A DNA stretch of 64,000 nt, from assembly GCA_045593405.1 (NCBI GenBank), contig JAZNWN010000015.1, positions 8,395 to 72,394 on the forward strand. Reading direction: 5' to 3'. Position 1 is the stretch's first letter. Each line of letters begins with the position of its first letter. The notes under the pieces were generated by a model. The model was not told the origin of the DNA. It did not search any database and was given only the letters and a program-made list of their open reading frames with translations. Source of the DNA: Clostridia bacterium (GTDB taxonomy: Bacteria > Bacillota > Clostridia > TANB77 > CAG-508). Below are positions 24,340 through 54,960 of the stretch, one piece after another. The translations under genes and the position numbers were made by a program.

Positions 24340-24438
24340 TGGTGCAGATGGCCGGAATCGGCAAGCCGCGTCCTAAAAACAGTCCACCGGACTGTTTTTG
24401 CCTCATTTTATTCGGCACGTCCTTTTCGATTCCTTCCA
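24340..24438 (-). repeat. tRNA-3'-linked repeat element, copy A (ends in a 21-nt duplicate of the tRNA-Leu 3' end)
   Basis: TGGTGCAGATGGCCGGAATCG is shared with tRNA-Leu. It is followed by GCAAGCCGCGTC, the palindrome AAAAACAGTCC-ACC-GGACTGTTTTT, and the right end ...CCTTTTCGATTCCTTCCA. Confidence 0.7.
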
Positions 24439-24488
24439 TTAAAATTCATAAAAATAGAACCACACCTATCGGTATGGTTCTATTTTTA

Positions 24489-24577
24489 TGGTGCAGATGG
24501 CCGGAATCGAACCGGCACGGTTTATTCAACCGCAGGATTTTAAGTCCTGTGCGTCTACCAGTTCCGCCACATCTGCA
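24489..24577 (-). tRNA. tRNA-Leu (anticodon TAA)
   Basis: Reverse-complement cloverleaf with acceptor GCCCAGA (5' TGCAGATGTGGCGGAA...), anticodon loop CTTAAAA, a long variable arm and an encoded CCA. Confidence 0.85.
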
Positions 24578-24606
24578 TTACTGGCTTTGTCTAACGACAT
24601 TTGCAA

Positions 24607-24636
24607 TTATACTACTTATTTATATGTTGTGTCAAT
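24607..24636 (-). promoter_or_regulatory. sigma-A-type promoter for tRNA-Leu
   Basis: On the minus strand, TTGACA is followed by 17 nt and then TATAAT, about 28 nt upstream of the tRNA-Leu 5' end. Confidence 0.55.
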
Positions 24637-24761
24637 ACTTTTTTTTATTTTTTTTATTTTTTATATTAATAAGTATTTGATGTGAAAGGCTGGAAGTATG
24701 AAGTGTGCTTTTAGGTTTTTTCTGAATTCACACCTCACACTTCCAACTTCTCACCTATTTT

Positions 24762-25826
24762 TTAATACTCAAACCACAATCCTTTTGTTCTTAAGTCTGA
24801 TATTATTTGGTTGTGTTCTGATGTAGTTTTTGAAAAATATACTTTTCCTGTTTTATCTGCTACAAAGAACAAGTAATCTGTTTCATTTGGATTTATTGCA
24901 GCCTCTATACTTGATTTACTCACTGATGATATTGGTCCTACTGGCAATTCGCCTTCCATGTTTGGTCCTCTTGTATTATATGGATTATATGTATCCAATT
25001 CCCTTTGATATAAGTCTCTTTCTCCCATATCTATTTTAAATGCATAATATGTTGTTACATCACTTTGTATTGCCATTCCCCTTTTTAATCTATTATAAAC
25101 TACACTTGCTACATCTTTTCTATCTTCTGTGTTTACAGATTCCATCTCAACTATTGATGCTAGTGCTAGTATTTCATGTACACTTAAGTTACTTTGCTCT
25201 ATTTCTTCTTTATATTCATCTAATACATCTTCCATTTTGTCTAACATTTTTTCAAAAATATCTTCTACTGTTACATCTTTATTTTGAAGCGCATAAGTAT
25301 CTGGAAATAAATATCCTTCTAAAGCATAATATATATTTCCATCTTTTATTTCTTCTGCTATAAACCAATATTTTTCTATTAAAGATTCAATATATTCTTC
25401 ATTTTCTAAAAGTTCATATACTTCTTCTTGTGTATTATTTGTTTCTTGCGCTATTTTATCTGCAAGCCACCTCATATTTTTTCCTTCTAAATATGTAAAT
25501 GTTATTTGATTTGGGTCATATAGTATTCCACTTTTCAAACTTTCAGTTATTTCTTTTAAGGACATATTTTGTCTTAAATTATATGTCCCTGCCTTAAAGT
25601 CATCTATGTTGTTTAATTTAACATAAATTTTAAAACCTAATTTACTTTTAATAATATCATTCTCTTTTAAAATTTCTGCAATGCCACTTATACCTGTTCC
25701 TAGTGGTATTGAAACTTCTATTTCTTCACTTTTTGAACTCACTTTAGTAAACATTGATACATACATTATTATAATTGCTATTACTAAGATACCAAGTAAT
25801 ATTAATCCAATTTTTAGTTTATTCAT
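24762..25826 (-). CDS. mltG: endolytic murein transglycosylase MltG (YceG-like)
   Basis: An N-terminal transmembrane helix is followed by the YceG-like domain (354 aa). Confidence 0.85.
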   Translation of the reverse strand: MNKLKIGLILLGILVIAIIIMYVSMFTKVSSKSEEIEVSIPLGTGISGIAEILKENDIIKSKLGFKIYVKLNNIDDFKAGTYNLRQNMSLKEITESLKSGILYDPNQITFTYLEGKNMRWLADKIAQETNNTQEEVYELLENEEYIESLIEKYWFIAEEIKDGNIYYALEGYLFPDTYALQNKDVTVEDIFEKMLDKMEDVLDEYKEEIEQSNLSVHEILALASIVEMESVNTEDRKDVASVVYNRLKRGMAIQSDVTTYYAFKIDMGERDLYQRELDTYNPYNTRGPNMEGELPVGPISSVSKSSIEAAINPNETDYLFFVADKTGKVYFSKTTSEHNQIISDLRTKGLWFEY

Positions 25827-25828
25827 TT

Positions 25829-51880: not shown

Positions 51881-52103
51881 TTTATAACCACTCCCGAAAT
51901 TTTATTTGCCTATATATTATCACAAGTTGTTTTGTTTGTCAAACAAAAGTTTTATTTTTTTAATCTCTTATAGTTTTTTATATATAATAAAAATGTAGGA
52001 GTTAGCTCTTTATGGCAGCCGGCAAATCATTAAAAGCATTCTTTTCTTTCGGGCGCCTAAGATTGCTCCCCCTACCTTATTCACAATTAATATAAAATAC
52101 AAA

Positions 52104-53378
52104 TCAATTAAACCATTCTAATTCCCAGTCATTAAATCTTACGGTATCGCCTTCTTGCACTCCTTCTTGTTTTAATGCTTCTTCTATTCCTAAATTACGC
52201 AATGTTTTTTGGAAATAATATAATGATTCATTATCTTCTAAATTTACTCTTCCCATTAATCTATCTACTGCTGGTCCTTGTACAATAAACTCTCCATTTG
52301 CTCTTATTATTTCAAATTCATCTTTATCTTCTTTTAGAGTATAAACTACTCTTTCATCACCTTCTACTATTGTTTCTTTTGGAAGAGTTTTTACTGTTTC
52401 TGATACATACTTAAATAATTCTTTTAATCCTTCACCTGTTGCGGCAGATATTTTGAATATTTTTATATCTACTTTTTTTGCTAGTTCCTCTAATTCTTTA
52501 AATAAACTTTCATCTTGAAGCACATCTACTTTGTTTGCTACTATTATTTGTTTTCTTGTGGCTAGTTTTTCACTATATTTTTTTAGTTCTTCATTTATAA
52601 TTTTAAAATCCTCTACTGGAACTCTATCTTCTGAACCAGATACATCTATTACATGAAGTAAGAGTCTTGTTCTTTCTATATGTCTTAAAAATTTTAACCC
52701 TAACCCAATTCCATTACTTGCGCCTTCTATAATTCCTGGTATGTCTGCAATAACGAAGCTATCTCCATATTCAGTTTTTACTACTCCTAAATTTGGTTCT
52801 AGTGTGGTAAAATGATAGTCTGCAATTTTAGGTCTTGCTGATGTAACCATTGAAAGTATTGTTGACTTTCCTACATTTGGGAATCCAACTAGTCCAACAT
52901 CTGCAATTAATTTTAATTCTAAAATTATTTCTTTTTCTATTCCTTTTTCTCCACCTTGTGCGAAACGAGGTGCTTGTCTTGTTGCAGTTGCAAAGTGTGA
53001 GTTTCCTTTTCCTCCTCTTCCTCCTGGAAAAACAAGTTCACATTGTCCTTCTTCTGAAAGGTCAGCAATAACTTTTAAAGTTTCAGCATCTTTTATCACA
53101 GTTCCTCTTGGTACTTTTATATATAAGTCTTCTCCAGATTTTCCAAAACAACGGTTACCACTTCCATTTTCTCCATTTTGAGCCTTATATTTTTTATTAT
53201 ATCTAAAATTTATTAATGTATTTTGGTCTGGATCAACTACAAAATATACGTCTCCACCTTTTCCGCCGTCTCCGCCATCTGGTCCTCCTGATGCTACATA
53301 TTTTTCTCTTCTAAATGTAATTGCACCATTTCCACCATCTCCGGATTTTACAATTATTTTTGTATAATCTGTAAACAT
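52104..53378 (-). CDS. obg: GTPase Obg
   Basis: The N-terminus reads [27 protein letters not shown]. Gly-rich Obg fold, G domain and OCT domain are present. The protein is 424 aa. Confidence 0.95.
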
Positions 53379-53386
53379 ATGTCCTC

Positions 53387-54376
53387 CTATAAAATTCCTA
53401 TTTTACTCTTTACTTCATCTAAAGTTTTTGAAGCAAGCTCTCTTGCTTTTTGGGCACCTTTTTTATAAATTTCTTCTAAATATTCTGGATTTTCTAATAA
53501 TTCTTTGTATTTTTCTTGTACTGGTTTTAGTCTCTCTACTACTTTTTCTCCTACTGCTGTTTTAAAAGCCCCATATCCTTGGCCTGAAAATTCTTCTTCT
53601 ATTTCTTTTTCAGTTTTTCCCGTTATTGCTCCATATATACACATTAAATTACTTATACCTGGTTTATTTTCTGGATCATATCTAACAATGTTTTCTGAAT
53701 CTGTAACTGCTTTTTTAAACTTTTTCATAATTACTTCTGGTTCATCATCTAAGAAAATTGTATCATTTAAATTAGGTGAGCTTTTACTCATTTTACTTGT
53801 TGGATCTTGCAATCCCATTATTCTCGCTGTACTTTTTCTTATATAAGGTTCTGGTATTACAAAAGTATCTCCATATATTTTATTAAATCTTTCAGCTAAG
53901 TCTCTTGTTATTTCTAAGTGTTGTTTTTGATCTTCTCCTACTGGTACTAGATCTGCTTTATATAATAAAATATCTCCTGCCATTAGTACAGGGTATGTAA
54001 ATAATCCTGCATTTATATTATCTGCATGTTTTGCTGATTTGTCTTTAAATTGTGTCATACGAGAAAGTTCTCCCATATATGTATAACAATTAAGTATCCA
54101 TGCTAATTCTGCATGTTCCTTTACTTGTGACTGAATAAATATTGTATTTTTTTCTGGGTCAAGTCCAGCAGCTACATATAATGCTATTATTTTTAATGTG
54201 TTATTCTTTAATTCTTCAGGGTCATTTCTAACTGTTAGTGAATGTAAATTTGCTATCATGTAATAACAATTATATTCTTCTTGCATTTTTACCCAATTGT
54301 CTATTGCTCCTAAATAGTTTCCTAGTTGCAATCTTCCTGTAGATTGAATTCCGCTTAAAATTATTTTTTTATCCAT
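53387..54376 (-). CDS. trpS: tryptophan--tRNA ligase
   Basis: Class I motifs are present: a HIGH-like motif ([15 protein letters not shown]) and KMSKS. Confidence 0.95.
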
Positions 54377-54627
54377 GGGTTACCTCCTCATTTTATTTTT
54401 ATGCTTTATTTATATTTATAAAACACTGTCTTTTATTATACATTATTTTTGTTTTTTTTACAATACAAATGTTTGAAGAAATTGGAAATCGATTTGACTT
54501 TTTATGTAAATAATTGTATAATTTTTATGAAGTATTTCTTTTGAAGTACACTACCATATTACACTTCAGTAATTTGGTATTAACCTTTAGCAGATTTTTC
54601 TGCTATACAATCTTAGGAGGATTTTAT

Positions 54628-54801
54628 ATGCATCCTTATATGAACTGTGATACATGTGACCCCAAAACAAAAGAAGCATGTAACTATCCCGATACTGGCA
54701 TCTGCGCCAAAGAGGCCACTTTGCCTCCTGCAGTTTGCCCTATGTTTGAGGTTCCTACTAATAGTAACAATGTTGCTGCTAAAGTAGTTGCGCCTCCTTA
54801 A
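54628..54801 (+). CDS. small Cys-rich protein (57 aa)
   Basis: A strong AGGAGG RBS lies 7 nt before the ATG. The product is MHPYMNCDTCDPKTKEACNYPDTGICAKEATLPPAVCP.... A GC-rich terminator hairpin (GGCCTCCC...GGGAGGC, then a T-run) follows directly. Confidence 0.5.
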   Translation: MHPYMNCDTCDPKTKEACNYPDTGICAKEATLPPAVCPMFEVPTNSNNVAAKVVAPP

Positions 54802-54836
54802 AAAGGCCTCCCTTTAGGGAGGCTTTTTTAGTTAAC

Positions 54837-54960
54837 TCTGGTGACCCGTACGGGAATCGGCAAGCCGCGTCAGAAAAAATGTCCACTGGACATTTTTTGC
54901 CTTCGTTTCGGCAGGCCTTAACCTGCTCGAAACTTGGCATCTTCCTTTTCGATTCCCTTC
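54837..54960 (-). repeat. tRNA-3'-linked repeat element, copy E (next to tRNA-Glu; long form)
   Basis: TCTGGTGACCCGTACGGGAATCG is shared with tRNA-Glu. The core and the GTTTCGGCAGGCCTTAACCTGCTCGAAAC hairpin follow, then the right end CTTCCTTTTCGATTCCCTTC. Confidence 0.7.

Follow-up and report, generated by a model that had tools for sequence, protein, structure and literature searches.

A structured miniature element carrying a copy of the adjacent tRNA 3' part in low-GC gut Clostridia: a possible mobile element with a single-stranded intermediate

Introduction

Integrases are known to use the T loop as a sublocation within tRNA genes. Class C group II introns have their insertion sites directly behind intrinsic terminator hairpins and use a short base-pairing guide and an RNA intermediate. 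They are ribozymes of at least 0.7-2 kb that usually carry a reverse transcriptase ORF, their guide pairs upstream, and they do not duplicate a tRNA. The Mauriceville and Varkud retroplasmids of Neurospora form hybrid tRNA-plasmid cDNAs.

Here, we describe an element of about 60-110 nt that lies behind tRNA genes and ends in a second copy of the neighbouring tRNA 3' part. No Rfam family matches the element (the lone group II hit, at 13 bits, is noise) and a literature search returned no description of it, in agreement with the initial annotation of this DNA, which was aware of no described family of this kind.

Five copies in the window

The window, i.e., the whole stretch of 64,000 nt that was analysed, contains exactly five element copies, each on the minus strand and placed 3' of the final tRNA in its transcription unit (Leu-taa, Tyr, Phe, Gln-ttg and Glu-ctc); a hairpin with a T run, in the sense of the tRNA, stands between the two. 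Both the number of copies and the order tRNA, terminator, element agree with the initial annotation. A covariance model built from 55 copies returned the same five at 77-101 bits and nothing further above noise. Moreover, the invariant 14-mer GACGCGGCTTGCCG occurs five times in the window against none expected, and the central palindrome has four window sites at no more than one mismatch. ARAGORN predicts ten tRNA genes in the window, minus strand throughout; the tRNA-Thr is without a copy.

Each copy consists of a spacer, a 5' arm, a core and a copy of the adjacent tRNA that starts at C56 or G57; arm and core together form the actual element. The spacer forms the left junction and is not conserved; the right junction is exact, the 3' end of the element always joining position 56/57 of the second, locally derived copy of the tRNA 3' part. 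The 5' arm (7-8 nt) is complementary to C56-C62/N63 of the adjacent tRNA and pairs with the opening 7-8 nt of the tRNA copy to form helix P1 around the core. It had initially been taken for a reverse-complemented generic T arm; instead, its sequence matches the T loop and stem of the neighbouring tRNA. The core comprises CGAAAAGGA, the optional stems P2 and P2a, the hairpin P3 and the invariant GACGCGGCTTGC. The optional hairpin reported earlier reflects a division of the copies into three length classes, a short one, a medium one that has P2 and a long one that has both P2 and P2a.

Copy A (medium class) follows tRNA-Leu(taa) (24489..24576; this and the other four source tRNAs were identified with ARAGORN and Rfam, and all features given here lie on the minus strand). 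A terminator scan and the sequence place a terminator-like hairpin with a T run at 24447..24490, between the tRNA and the element. The final 7 nt of the 5' arm GGAAGGAATCG (24427..24437) pair with C56-C62 of the tRNA copy as helix P1. The core (24361..24426) contains AAAAGGACG, stem P2 (GUGCC/GGCA), hairpin P3 (24375-24399) and the invariant box, and the tail (24340..24360) copies C56-A76 of tRNA-Leu over 21 nt up to the CCA. The palindrome has the compensated form CAGTCC/GGACTG, as noted before.

Copy B (short class) follows tRNA-Tyr(gta) (30686..30771), the final gene in a Met-Tyr unit, and consists of the 5' arm GGGAGGATTCG (30624..30634), a core (30572..30623) with P3 at 30587-30609 and an invariant box that ends at 30570, and a tail (30561..30571) in which the tRNA-Tyr copy is truncated at 11 nt (CGAATCCATCC). 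The orthologue of copy B in L028 has the identical truncation. Copy C, likewise short, follows tRNA-Phe(gaa) (34992..35067), the final gene in a Val-Asp-Phe unit. Its 5' arm GGAAGCG (34930..34936) has one mismatch to CGATTCC, P3 (34893-34915) in the core (34878..34929) includes one U.G pair, and the tail (34857..34877) copies C56-A76 of tRNA-Phe over 21 nt.

The two remaining copies belong to the long class. Copy D follows tRNA-Gln(ttg) (42991..43066), the final gene in a His-Gln unit. Its 5' arm, again GGGAGGATTCG (42935..42945), matches the T loop and stem of tRNA-Gln over 11 nt, the core (42845..42934) contains P2, the extra hairpin P2a and P3 (42860-42882), and the 20-nt tail (42825..42844) copies tRNA-Gln with an altered start (CGGACC for CGAATCC). 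Copy E follows tRNA-Glu(ctc) (55003..55077) and has the 5' arm GGAATCG (54950..54956), which with the preceding G allows GGGAATCG to pair with CGATTCCC, a core (54860..54949) with P3 at 54875-54897, and a tail (54839..54859) copying C56-A76 of tRNA-Glu over 21 nt. The cores of copies D and E are 96% identical, hypervariable P2a included, and each arm matches its own tRNA. The earlier statement that the duplicate always runs from the T loop to CCA holds for Leu, Phe and Glu, where the 21 nt are complete and unaltered, but not for Tyr, with its end at 11 nt, or Gln, with its aberrant start.

Distribution and covariation

Beyond the window, about 60 further copies were recovered, without exception from uncultured animal and human gut Clostridia of low GC content (24-33%). 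Although the search pattern imposed no tRNA requirement, every one of the ~60 copies is preceded on its 5' side by a tRNA or tRNA fragment of the same orientation, which extends the tie to tRNAs proposed for the window to the whole set. The associated tRNAs represent at least 13 isoacceptors. Neither in the tRNA-Arg(cct) loci nor in L085 does a terminator stand between tRNA and element. Few decayed copies were detected.

The core hairpins are kept through compensatory changes. P3 is 99.6% paired, with changes on both sides in 5 of its 10 pairs, and P2 and P2a likewise covary. For the whole structure, the covariation score is 0.281, compared with 0.120 for shuffles (none of 500 as high) and at most 0.115 with slid partners, which bears out the earlier suggestion that the structure is under constraint. 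The 5' arm covaries with T-loop variants: at position 59 all 55 copies are paired (UA in 23, AU in 19, CG in 13), and in L109 the change G57A is compensated (GGACTTG with CAAGTCC). Complementarity between arm and tRNA past the 7-mer is significant but decays (P = 0.0006, 27 distinct tRNA ends). In L023 and L094, the outer 5' arm fits another tRNA allele better than its own, so at least part of the arm was inherited from a donor. On the sense strand, G.U pairs occur within the stems. Two sequence blocks show no variation among about 45 species-level genomes. Neither strand of the element contains a convincing internal promoter. The picture originally drawn, of a discrete and repeated miniature element whose structure is constrained and which is linked to the T loops of tRNAs, is supported.

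Variable duplications, gain and loss

The tRNA-tail repeat is a local duplication whose start is fixed in the T loop and whose end varies, with lengths from 9 to about 70 nt. It ends 0-4 nt after the CCA in about 15 loci and 5-20 nt beyond it, in locus-specific flank, in about 8 (e.g., +10 nt in L110, +13 nt in L118 and +20 nt in L048). About 10 loci have a repeat that spans the entire terminator and ends within 0-8 nt of the T run. The end points adjoin structured DNA, either the tRNA end or the terminator foot. In 12 loci the repeat is truncated to 9-17 nt and the remaining element is intact, hence a CCA-terminated tail is dispensable. The tail is identical to the adjacent tRNA even where tRNA alleles differ (L016, L094 vs. 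L040). Unlike an att block, the tRNA segment is not fixed.

The element behaves as one that is gained or lost among related lineages. A comparison at the same tRNA, as the initial annotation had proposed, found it at 5 of ~33 tRNA-Arg-tadA loci of related organisms, with repeat end points that differ between lineages. At the orthologous Phe locus, the copy is of the short class in the window and of the medium class in L096. L030, L070 and L098 contain tandem arrays, and L094, L096, L008 and L056 have distal solo left ends. The recovered loci include no strictly isogenic filled/empty pair, and we therefore infer the exact insertion boundaries.

In L047, L071, L081, L099 and L127, the upstream tRNA is split by foreign DNA. 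Island insertions were observed at other sublocations (the anticodon region and the last 8-12 nt), not in the T loop.

The element has no linked integrase, transposase or reverse transcriptase. About 50 ORFs screened in the window include no integrase or other recombinase, and none recurs in the flanks of about 57 loci. Likewise, the window and 8-kb flanks yielded no reverse transcriptase, HUH enzyme or recombinase. Two scans of viral contigs for the right end returned one host-flank copy (L099) and one chance match in a GC-rich integrase ORF (L187). The cognate integrase element envisaged at the outset did not turn up in the window, the flanks or these scans.

Discussion

For this family, which occurs in a clade of uncultured gut Clostridia of low GC content, we tentatively favour a non-autonomous mobile element that propagates via a single-stranded intermediate; this is possible rather than probable. 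In its favour are the tie of all copies to tRNAs, the covarying fold, the 5' arm that follows the local T loop, the duplication with one fixed and one variable end, the exact right junction beside an unconserved left one, the turnover between lineages, and the arrays and remnants. The copies look like elements that settle directly 3' of tRNA genes, duplicating the tRNA tail and leaving the gene unbroken. The simplest intermediate would be a read-through RNA that starts at the strong tRNA promoter; since most copies lie behind a terminator, transcription would require read-through. The 5' arm might serve as guide by pairing, over C56-N63, with the T loop and stem of either a tRNA or a pre-tRNA, and a copying enzyme could fuse the core to the tRNA segment that lies between position 56 and the RNA 3' end, which would be the CCA of a mature tRNA or the terminator U run of a primary transcript. 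A precedent for one of these steps is the Mauriceville retroplasmid reverse transcriptase, which starts cDNA synthesis at tRNA 3' ends according to a passage of PMC9925561 that cites Chiang and Lambowitz (1997). Via the tRNA segment, the chimera might then insert next to the tRNA gene in a homology-dependent (Campbell-type) manner, giving an intact tRNA, the spacer, the element and a repeat (56..p) that extends from position 56 to its end point p. On such a route, the tRNA would stay functional, and precise later loss and tandem arrays would be possible. These specific RNA-guided capture steps are quite unlikely to be correct as they stand, and neither the window nor the 8-kb flanks encode an enzyme for the proposed copying. 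Mobility itself also meets objections: besides the need for read-through, the lack of a convincing internal promoter and the donor share in the 5' arms of L023 and L094, truncated repeats and solo left ends need extra deletion events, recombination over a mere 21 nt of homology would be inefficient, and repeat ends at CCA or the T run could alternatively result from selection against disruption of tRNA or terminator.

A somewhat unlikely alternative, in line with the tRNA-linked small RNA of the initial annotation, is a structured RNA or cis-acting module that serves the host as part of the tRNA unit, for instance as insulator or terminator, processing element, or tRNA 3'-end mimic or decoy. 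Helix P1 and the tRNA-identical tail would then be functional and kept by selection, and copies would spread or homogenise by recombination. The strong covariation of P1, P2, P2a and P3, the two blocks invariant in about 45 species-level genomes, the sense-strand G.U pairs and the scarcity of decayed copies are in line with this, as is the retained identity of tail and tRNA across alleles. Furthermore, element and tRNA always share their sense, the element lies inside or just behind the transcription unit, and co-transcription is expected where the terminator is missing (tRNA-Arg(cct) loci, L085). However, the expression context is inconsistent, a strong terminator preceding some copies and not others, and the same locus is patchy among related lineages, with different length variants at orthologous loci. 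The 12 loci with shortened tails but otherwise intact elements, the arrays and solo fragments typical of selfish repeats, and the lack of an Rfam family also speak against a host-serving RNA.

An integrase-mobilised, CIME-like miniature or attL/attR scars of tRNA islands, as initially proposed, would account for a duplication that begins in the T loop and for an intact upstream tRNA, with the T loop as crossover and the tail as att identity segment. The same tRNAs are true integration hot spots, as the interrupted genes show, and the invariant GC-rich quasi-palindrome CGGCTTGCCG could be a protein-binding site. Yet we consider this very unlikely. The repeat is inconstant in length and reaches into locus-specific flank or the local terminator, so it was generated in place and not carried as attP, and one conserved interior serves at least 13 tRNAs, each tail matching its own locus. 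The observed island insertions use other parts of the tRNA, no integrase lies in the window or recurs in the flanks of about 57 loci, and the viral-contig scans gave one host-flank copy and one chance match. Such duplications also argue against scars of integration and excision cycles. Conservative site-specific recombination yields no locally derived, variable-length duplications, and a CIME/integrase mechanism is not supported. We give just as little credence to an origin without dedicated machinery, as a side effect of unequal recombination or of template switching during replication, promoted by fork stalling at hairpins and seeded by microhomology between the element right end (TTGCCGAWTCC) and the tRNA T loop (GGTTCGAWTCC). 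A right junction fixed at 7-11 nt of microhomology, a variable left junction without homology, partial local duplications, arrays and solo left ends, and repeat ends beside structured DNA would fit. But compensatory conservation of the hairpins and two blocks over many species would be unexplained, as would a donor-derived 5' arm that matches the recipient T-loop variant in 55 of 55 copies.

Comparison with known systems

Like islands and CIMEs that integrate at tRNAs through tyrosine integrases, the element lies on the tRNA 3' side, leaves the tRNA intact and is flanked by a direct repeat of the tRNA 3' part that starts within the gene. In contrast, its repeat is variable (9 to about 70 nt) and derived from the local flank, at least 13 tRNAs share a single interior, which is a covarying hairpin fold of 60-110 nt, like that of an RNA or single-stranded DNA, and an integrase is not linked. 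With MITEs, IS200/IS605-derived PATEs and REP/BIME sequences, it shares the character of short, non-coding, multi-copy intergenic repeats that are patchy among relatives, with terminal inverted complementarity and length variants. However, its terminal 'inverted repeat' is set by the neighbouring tRNA, its target duplication has no fixed length, its short class has a single internal hairpin, and all copies are tied to tRNAs. Integron attC sites and CTX-phage attP(+) resemble it in having inverted segments 50-100 nt apart, a folded stem that can imitate a double-stranded target, and variable internal hairpins with conserved structure rather than sequence. They differ in that the element has no RYYYAAC/GTTRRRY core sites, cassette or phage body and inserts with target duplication.

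Class C group II introns are similar in their site behind a terminator, their pairing guide and their RNA intermediate, the latter two being proposed for the element, and dissimilar in size and ORF. The Mauriceville and Varkud retroplasmids are fungal mitochondrial plasmids with their own reverse transcriptase, whereas the element is of 100 nt, has no known reverse transcriptase, carries a tRNA copy that stops in the T loop and has a 5' arm that pairs with this copy. The proposed logic is nevertheless alike: a copy of the tRNA 3' end, made from an RNA 3' terminus, is joined to another template, and the tRNA homology would offer a route into the tRNA locus.

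Element Copies and Genes in the Window

All ten tRNA genes of the window lie on the minus strand (ARAGORN, Rfam), and element copies A to E adjoin tRNA-Leu(taa), Tyr(gta), Phe(gaa), Gln(ttg), and Glu(ctc), respectively. The initial annotation had counted these same five copies, and the count is borne out: the 14-mer GACGCGGCTTGCCG occurs five times in the window where no occurrence is expected, and a covariance model of 55 copies yields exactly five matches of 77–101 bits, the next-best being the reverse strands of the same copies or noise. No copy adjoins tRNA-Thr or the tRNAs inside the clusters of the window. 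In tRNA sense, each site runs from the last tRNA of the unit through a hairpin with a T run and an A/T-rich spacer of 10–25 nt to GGAWTCG, AAAAGGA(G/C/A)G, internal stems, GACGCGGCTTGC, and CGAWTCC with the remaining tRNA 3′ end. The annotation had every copy end in a duplicate of the tRNA tail down to CCA. This holds for the Leu, Phe, and Glu copies, whose 21-nt tail copy (C56–A76) is unaltered, but the Gln tail copy is altered at its start (CGGACC) and the Tyr tail copy ends after 11 nt. The central palindrome AAAAATGTCCA-N-TGGACATTTTT is found at four of the five sites.

Housekeeping genes of the kind usual in a spore-forming Clostridium-like organism make up the approximately 50 ORFs of the window (among them mltG, pflB, thyX, gerA-type genes, ychF, hisS, a PASTA kinase gene, rlmN, sigH, lexA, obg, trpS, ylqF, a gene for a 126-aa RNase III-domain protein, truB, infB, and nusA). 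None of them encodes an integrase, transposase, or reverse transcriptase, and exact-protein look-ups of YchF and ThyX returned no record. Rfam at gathering thresholds finds no T-box leader for trpS and hisS (window:53387-54460 and 44461-45900); aminoacyl-tRNA synthetase genes without such a leader are unusual in Firmicutes.

A second conserved motif trails some tRNAs and reads AAATGTGCGAC-TTAACA-GTCGCA, AGTGAATA(A/G)T, and GCACATTTGTACTATTCACT with a T run. On the minus strand of the window it stands directly after the CCA of tRNA-Thr (~49765-49640) and directly after the Gln tail copy (~42824-42745). Among loci on other contigs recovered by our scans (L handles), it is present at L043:4510-4890 and L085:6400-6520 (plus-strand coordinates, element on the minus strand) and at L023:3790-3930. 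Its pairings are mutually exclusive, AAATGTGC joining either the nearby GCATTT or the distant GCACATTT, and a terminator-like hairpin closes it. The motif has no Rfam match at gathering thresholds; its appearance suggests a leader of attenuator or riboswitch-like type, or a further repeat family.

A Family Confined to tRNA 3′ Flanks

The family was sought with the pattern TTTTNNNGACGCGGCTTGCCG, which contains no tRNA sequence, in one genome per species (GTDB). Among the 98 stretches returned, those above 45% GC are chance matches within genes, whereas the low-GC stretches (24–33% GC) are all genuine copies from approximately 45 MAGs, labeled uncultured Clostridia or Clostridium and derived from rabbit, Hadza, goat, horse, and other guts. 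As at the five sites of the annotation, every copy with enough upstream sequence has a tRNA 5′ of it in the same sense, nearly always the last one of its cluster (Arg-cct, Arg-tct, Arg-acg, Gln-ctg, Gln-ttg, Tyr, Ser-gct, Cys, Asn, Phe, Lys-ctt, Leu-taa, or Glu-ctc). The flanking genes are housekeeping genes in synteny. An all-against-all comparison of 365 flanking ORFs gave no recurring mobile-element gene, no integrase recurs in the 8-kb flanks of approximately 57 loci, and viral-contig scans gave no full-length integrase-bearing element with matching ends.

The claim that no family of this structure has been described also withstood the searches. Rfam has no family for the element, as only tRNAs pass at gathering thresholds, and permissive scans add weak matches far below threshold that center on terminator-type hairpins, a few of them reaching into the element. 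Searching the literature for the invariant 14-mer as text was without result, and no paper describing a miniature tRNA-linked element of such a kind came up by keyword.

At four loci (L047, L071, L081, and L099) the tRNA 5′ of the element is interrupted by foreign DNA. These interruptions are ordinary island insertions, located in the anticodon/variable region (L047, L071) or in the last 8–12 nt of the tRNA (L081, L099, and also L127, as compared with L128). Islands or prophages thus integrate into such tRNAs in the ordinary way as well, at sublocations other than the T loop. The L028 orthologue of the window tRNA-Tyr (L028:975-1290) carries an insertion of approximately 250 nt in its anticodon loop, which the window gene lacks and because of which ARAGORN does not call it; this is probably a group I-type tRNA intron.

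Structural Constraint on the Core

The core comes in three length classes: a short one with 42 nt from CGAAAAGGA to the 3′ box, a medium one of approximately 57 nt in which stem P2 (UGCC(N)/(N)GGCA) closes a purine-rich loop, and a long one of approximately 80 nt with P2 and the additional hairpin P2a. The optional hairpin of the initial annotation thus exists in some copies, but as part of this threefold series. Class is independent of tRNA identity, and Phe, Tyr, Asn, and Gln loci differ in class between species.

Hairpin P3 is 99.6% paired in the alignment of 55 sequences, with two-sided changes at five of its ten pairs (one pair, for example, is CG in 26 copies, UA in 21, and AU in 8). The structure covariation score of 0.281 is reached by none of 500 column shuffles (0.120 in shuffles), and with slid partners the score does not exceed 0.115. 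The doubly changed palindrome of copy A, AAAAACAGTCC/GGACTGTTTTT, which had been read as compensatory from a single copy, is one instance of family-wide covariation. Furthermore, P2a keeps its pairing despite hypervariable sequence, and P2 shows compensated changes (UGCU/AGCA in L054, UGCCC/GGGCA in L009). The CGAAAAGGA and GACGCGGCTTGC blocks do not vary across copies, a remarkable constancy for genomes of 28% GC. RNAalifold predicts that CGAAAAGGA could pair with GACGCGGCTTGC in competition with P2, and a mutual pairing of CGAAAAGGA with GACGCGGCUUGC is likewise predicted. Sense-strand G·U pairs occur in P1 and P2, and the folding energies of the element do not discriminate between the strands as the functional one.

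Two readings of the core as an ordinary gene feature were set aside. For a small ORF behind the Shine–Dalgarno-like AAGGAGG, neither the ATG nor the frame is conserved between copies or classes. For an antisense sRNA with an anti-tRNA seed, P3 does score as a plus-strand terminator in three of the five window copies, but it lacks a conserved downstream promoter and usually has a terminator just before it.

The 5′ Arm Matches the Adjoining tRNA

The 7 nt 5′ of CGAAAAGG are the reverse complement of C56–C62 of the tail copy, with which they form helix P1. The annotation had regarded this 5′ end as the complement of a generic T arm; instead, it follows the T loop of the neighboring tRNA. The pair at T-loop position 59 is UA in 23 copies, AU in 19, and CG in 13, and is unpaired in none. 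Rarer T loops are matched as well, CGAACCC by GGGTTCG in L010 and CGAGTTC by GGGGCTCG through G·U pairs in L047. In L109 a change at position 57 is compensated (CAAGTCC with GGACTTG), so the tRNA-derived part begins at G57 or C56. Approximately 60% of copies extend the pairing into the T stem (35 of 55 at position 63), beyond which it fades. Past the 7-mer, complementarity to the own tRNA exceeds that to other tRNAs modestly (P = 0.0006; 27 distinct tRNA ends).

The Gln and Glu copies of the window have cores 96% identical including P2a, and their arms differ, each fitting its own tRNA. The arm is therefore target-specific, although in L023 and L094 its outer part fits another tRNA allele better than its own. 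Either the match is needed for insertion or the pairing is selected.

The tRNA Tail Repeat Is a Local Duplication

To map the repeat ends, the sequence 3′ of C56 in the real tRNA was aligned with the sequence 3′ of the element. The repeat starts at C56/G57 in all copies, the upstream tRNAs are intact, and repeat length ranges from 9 to approximately 70 nt. Shortened repeats of 9–17 nt are found at 12 loci, and approximately 15 loci have a repeat ending at CCA or within 4 nt beyond it. At approximately eight loci the repeat reaches 5–20 nt into flank that is also present 3′ of the real tRNA (L110, with ATTAAATAGT on both sides; L118, GGAATGAAATGAG; L048, 20 nt). At approximately ten it covers the whole terminator and ends 0–8 nt from the T run (among them L009, L010, L029, L035, L040, L054, L077, L097, and L172), and in L030 and L094 it takes in still more of the tRNA unit. 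The spacer left of the arm is unconserved. One junction is thus exact and the other ragged, with repeat ends clustering at CCA and at terminator T runs. CCA is encoded in all tRNA genes here. Mature tRNAs have their 3′ end at CCA and primary transcripts at the T run, which is suggestive of an RNA origin; alternatively, selection against damage to tRNA or terminator could cause the same clustering.

In some loci (window:34947-34991, tRNA-Phe; L011, L079, and L097, tRNA-Cys), the descending terminator arm is complementary to the last 5 nt of the tRNA (TGGTG for CACCA or TGGAG for CTCCA), and the hairpin therefore includes the CCA end there. At four of 29 representative loci, this is above chance (P = 0.0003) but not general, and its rarity led us to reject a fold-back duplication with tRNA tail, terminator, spacer, and arm as one long palindrome.

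Gain, Loss, and Remnants

Turnover was surveyed in a metagenome scan with TadA as the handle, which gave 80 loci, approximately 33 of them with tRNA-Arg directly 5′ of tadA. Only five of the latter carry the element (L110, L118, L133, L135, and L172), in addition to a contig-end copy in L109, and the covariance model finds no decayed copies at the others. At 69–90% TadA identity, carriers are interspersed among non-carriers. Among the carriers, both class and repeat end point vary, which argues for independent gains or for gains alternating with losses. At the Phe locus (gerA to acyl-CoA ligase), the window has a short copy and L096 a medium one at 88% protein identity, whereas at the Tyr locus the window and L028 share the same short copy and the same 11-nt shortened repeat.

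Tandem arrays occur in L030, L070, and L098. Four further loci have, distal to an intact copy, a second terminator–spacer–arm unit that breaks off 0–13 nt into the core and continues as unrelated flank (L094:1530-1620, L096:1980-2070, and L056:60-160, in plus coordinates with the element on the minus strand, and L008:1990-2065). The L056 arm runs straight into AATCC, and the resulting sequence GGATTCGAATCC is a perfect palindrome, such as precise removal of the core might leave. A 2-bp target duplication of the central CG with precise excision was considered and dropped, L056 being the sole such locus found.

A search for orthologous empty sites via TrpS homologues gave none, synteny 5′ of trpS being unconserved. 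The metagenome contigs L171 and L172 are 100% identical from the descending terminator arm onward on the tadA side, and upstream they are unrelated, with tRNA-Arg(cct) in one and tRNA-Arg(acg) plus the element in the other. Since only the downstream side is common, they do not form an empty/filled pair, and they represent either an assembly chimera or a rearrangement in which the repeated terminator recombined.

Possible Mechanisms

The element is discrete, clade-restricted, and multi-copy, with a constrained structure, tRNA-specific ends, and a local target duplication of variable length; it has no linked coding partner. Internal hairpins maintained by compensatory change typify RNA or ssDNA intermediates rather than double-strand transposons. 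From this we infer a non-autonomous mobile element whose mobility depends on a folded single strand. We tentatively prefer movement through a single-stranded intermediate, while rating it somewhat short of an even chance. A specific capture mechanism guided by RNA is doubtful. In it, a tRNA or pre-tRNA would be bound by pairing of the 5′ arm with its T loop and stem, a polymerase or RNA-joining activity would connect the core with the stretch of that RNA between position 56 and its 3′ end, and the chimera would recombine with the tRNA gene through this stretch in a Campbell-type event. The product would be tRNA, spacer, element, and a repeat from 56 to p, with precise loss and arrays explained as well, and the model accounts for most junction features. 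For the Mauriceville retroplasmid, hybrid tRNA–plasmid cDNAs are reported to integrate by homology. The Mauriceville retroplasmid reverse transcriptase begins cDNA synthesis at tRNA 3′ ends (PMC9925561), a precedent for one step of the model. Equally doubtful is an RNA-guided bacterial retroelement akin to SINEs, or a small ribozyme-like RNA, that captures tRNA tails programmably, its guide re-set for each tRNA. Here the arm would pair with the T loop of the chosen tRNA, position 56 of that tRNA would receive the element 3′ end, and the resulting chimera would be converted back to DNA next to the tRNA gene; at the junction, the invariant nucleotides CGAAAAGGA and GACGCGGCUUGC would serve as the catalytic or protein-binding center.

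A domesticated structured RNA linked to tRNAs is unlikely, if less so than either guided scheme. An integrase-mobilized miniature element or its scar, the first two suggestions of the initial annotation, is quite improbable. We reject the integrase reading mainly because a local duplication with one exact and one ragged junction is unlike conservative site-specific recombination; a repeat of such variable length that extends into locus-specific flank or through the terminator does not suit an attB-using mechanism. Template-switch duplications seeded by T-loop microhomology, operating without dedicated machinery, have a similarly slim prospect; they would share the fixed start in the T loop and the local origin of the repeat, to be set against a conserved core and arms that fit each tRNA.

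An integrase-gene remnant was also tried. At L187:7327-7345, in a GC-rich viral contig, GACGCGGCTTGCCGAATCC (element right end plus T loop) is identical to a TRLAES-coding stretch within the conserved RHTFGTRLAESG motif of a tyrosine integrase. TRLA-coding matches occur by chance in unrelated GC-rich genes too, including PlsY-like ORFs (L034, L038, L082), and we therefore judge the match to be chance, though a curious coincidence for a tRNA-linked element. Moreover, the "frame" in the element is broken between classes and overlaps the covarying hairpin.

Significance and Comparison With Known Systems

tRNA genes are classic landing sites of mobile DNA, with integrase crossover inside the gene as the accepted cause. 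This element arrives at an identical arrangement, an intact tRNA with a tail repeat, by means of a 100-nt non-coding unit, tRNA-matched arms, and local duplication. Should it move via RNA or ssDNA with a base-pairing arm, it would represent a novel, very compact strategy for targeting conserved genes without damage, from which insertion tools that can be programmed might be derived. Should it prove to be a host RNA, a large uncultured portion of the gut microbiota would have a novel class of structured RNAs linked to tRNAs. In both cases, the element is a marker able to confound tRNA annotation, island prediction (through false att repeats), and assembly in these genomes.

Like an integrase att site or CIME, the element has a repeat starting at a canonical tRNA sublocation and leaves the tRNA restored; however, att sites carry a constant attP-borne identity segment, whereas this repeat is locally derived and varies in length. 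DDE-type MITEs have element-specific terminal inverted repeats and a target duplication of fixed length, while the 7-nt arms here change with the neighboring tRNA and the duplication is variable. PATEs derived from IS200/IS605 have subterminal hairpins at both ends and insert 3′ of a fixed 4–5 nt target without duplication; here P3 is the only hairpin of the short class and a duplication is always present. The closing helix GGAWTCG/CGAWTCC differs from the RYYYAAC and GTTRRRY core sites of integron attC. P3 resembles a hairpin with T run, but helix P1 and the unvarying CGAAAAGGA and GACGCGGCTTGC are not part of it, so the core is more than the shared operon terminator that the annotation had named as a refuting outcome. 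SINE-like or hybrid cDNA insertions have an exact 3′ junction, a ragged 5′ junction, and a host segment ending at an RNA 3′ end; the junctions of the element fit this, and selection could give the same pattern. We know of no bacterial family with target-matched arms and a tail duplication of fixed start and variable end; in its broad kind, the element belongs to the small intergenic repeats and miniature mobile elements.
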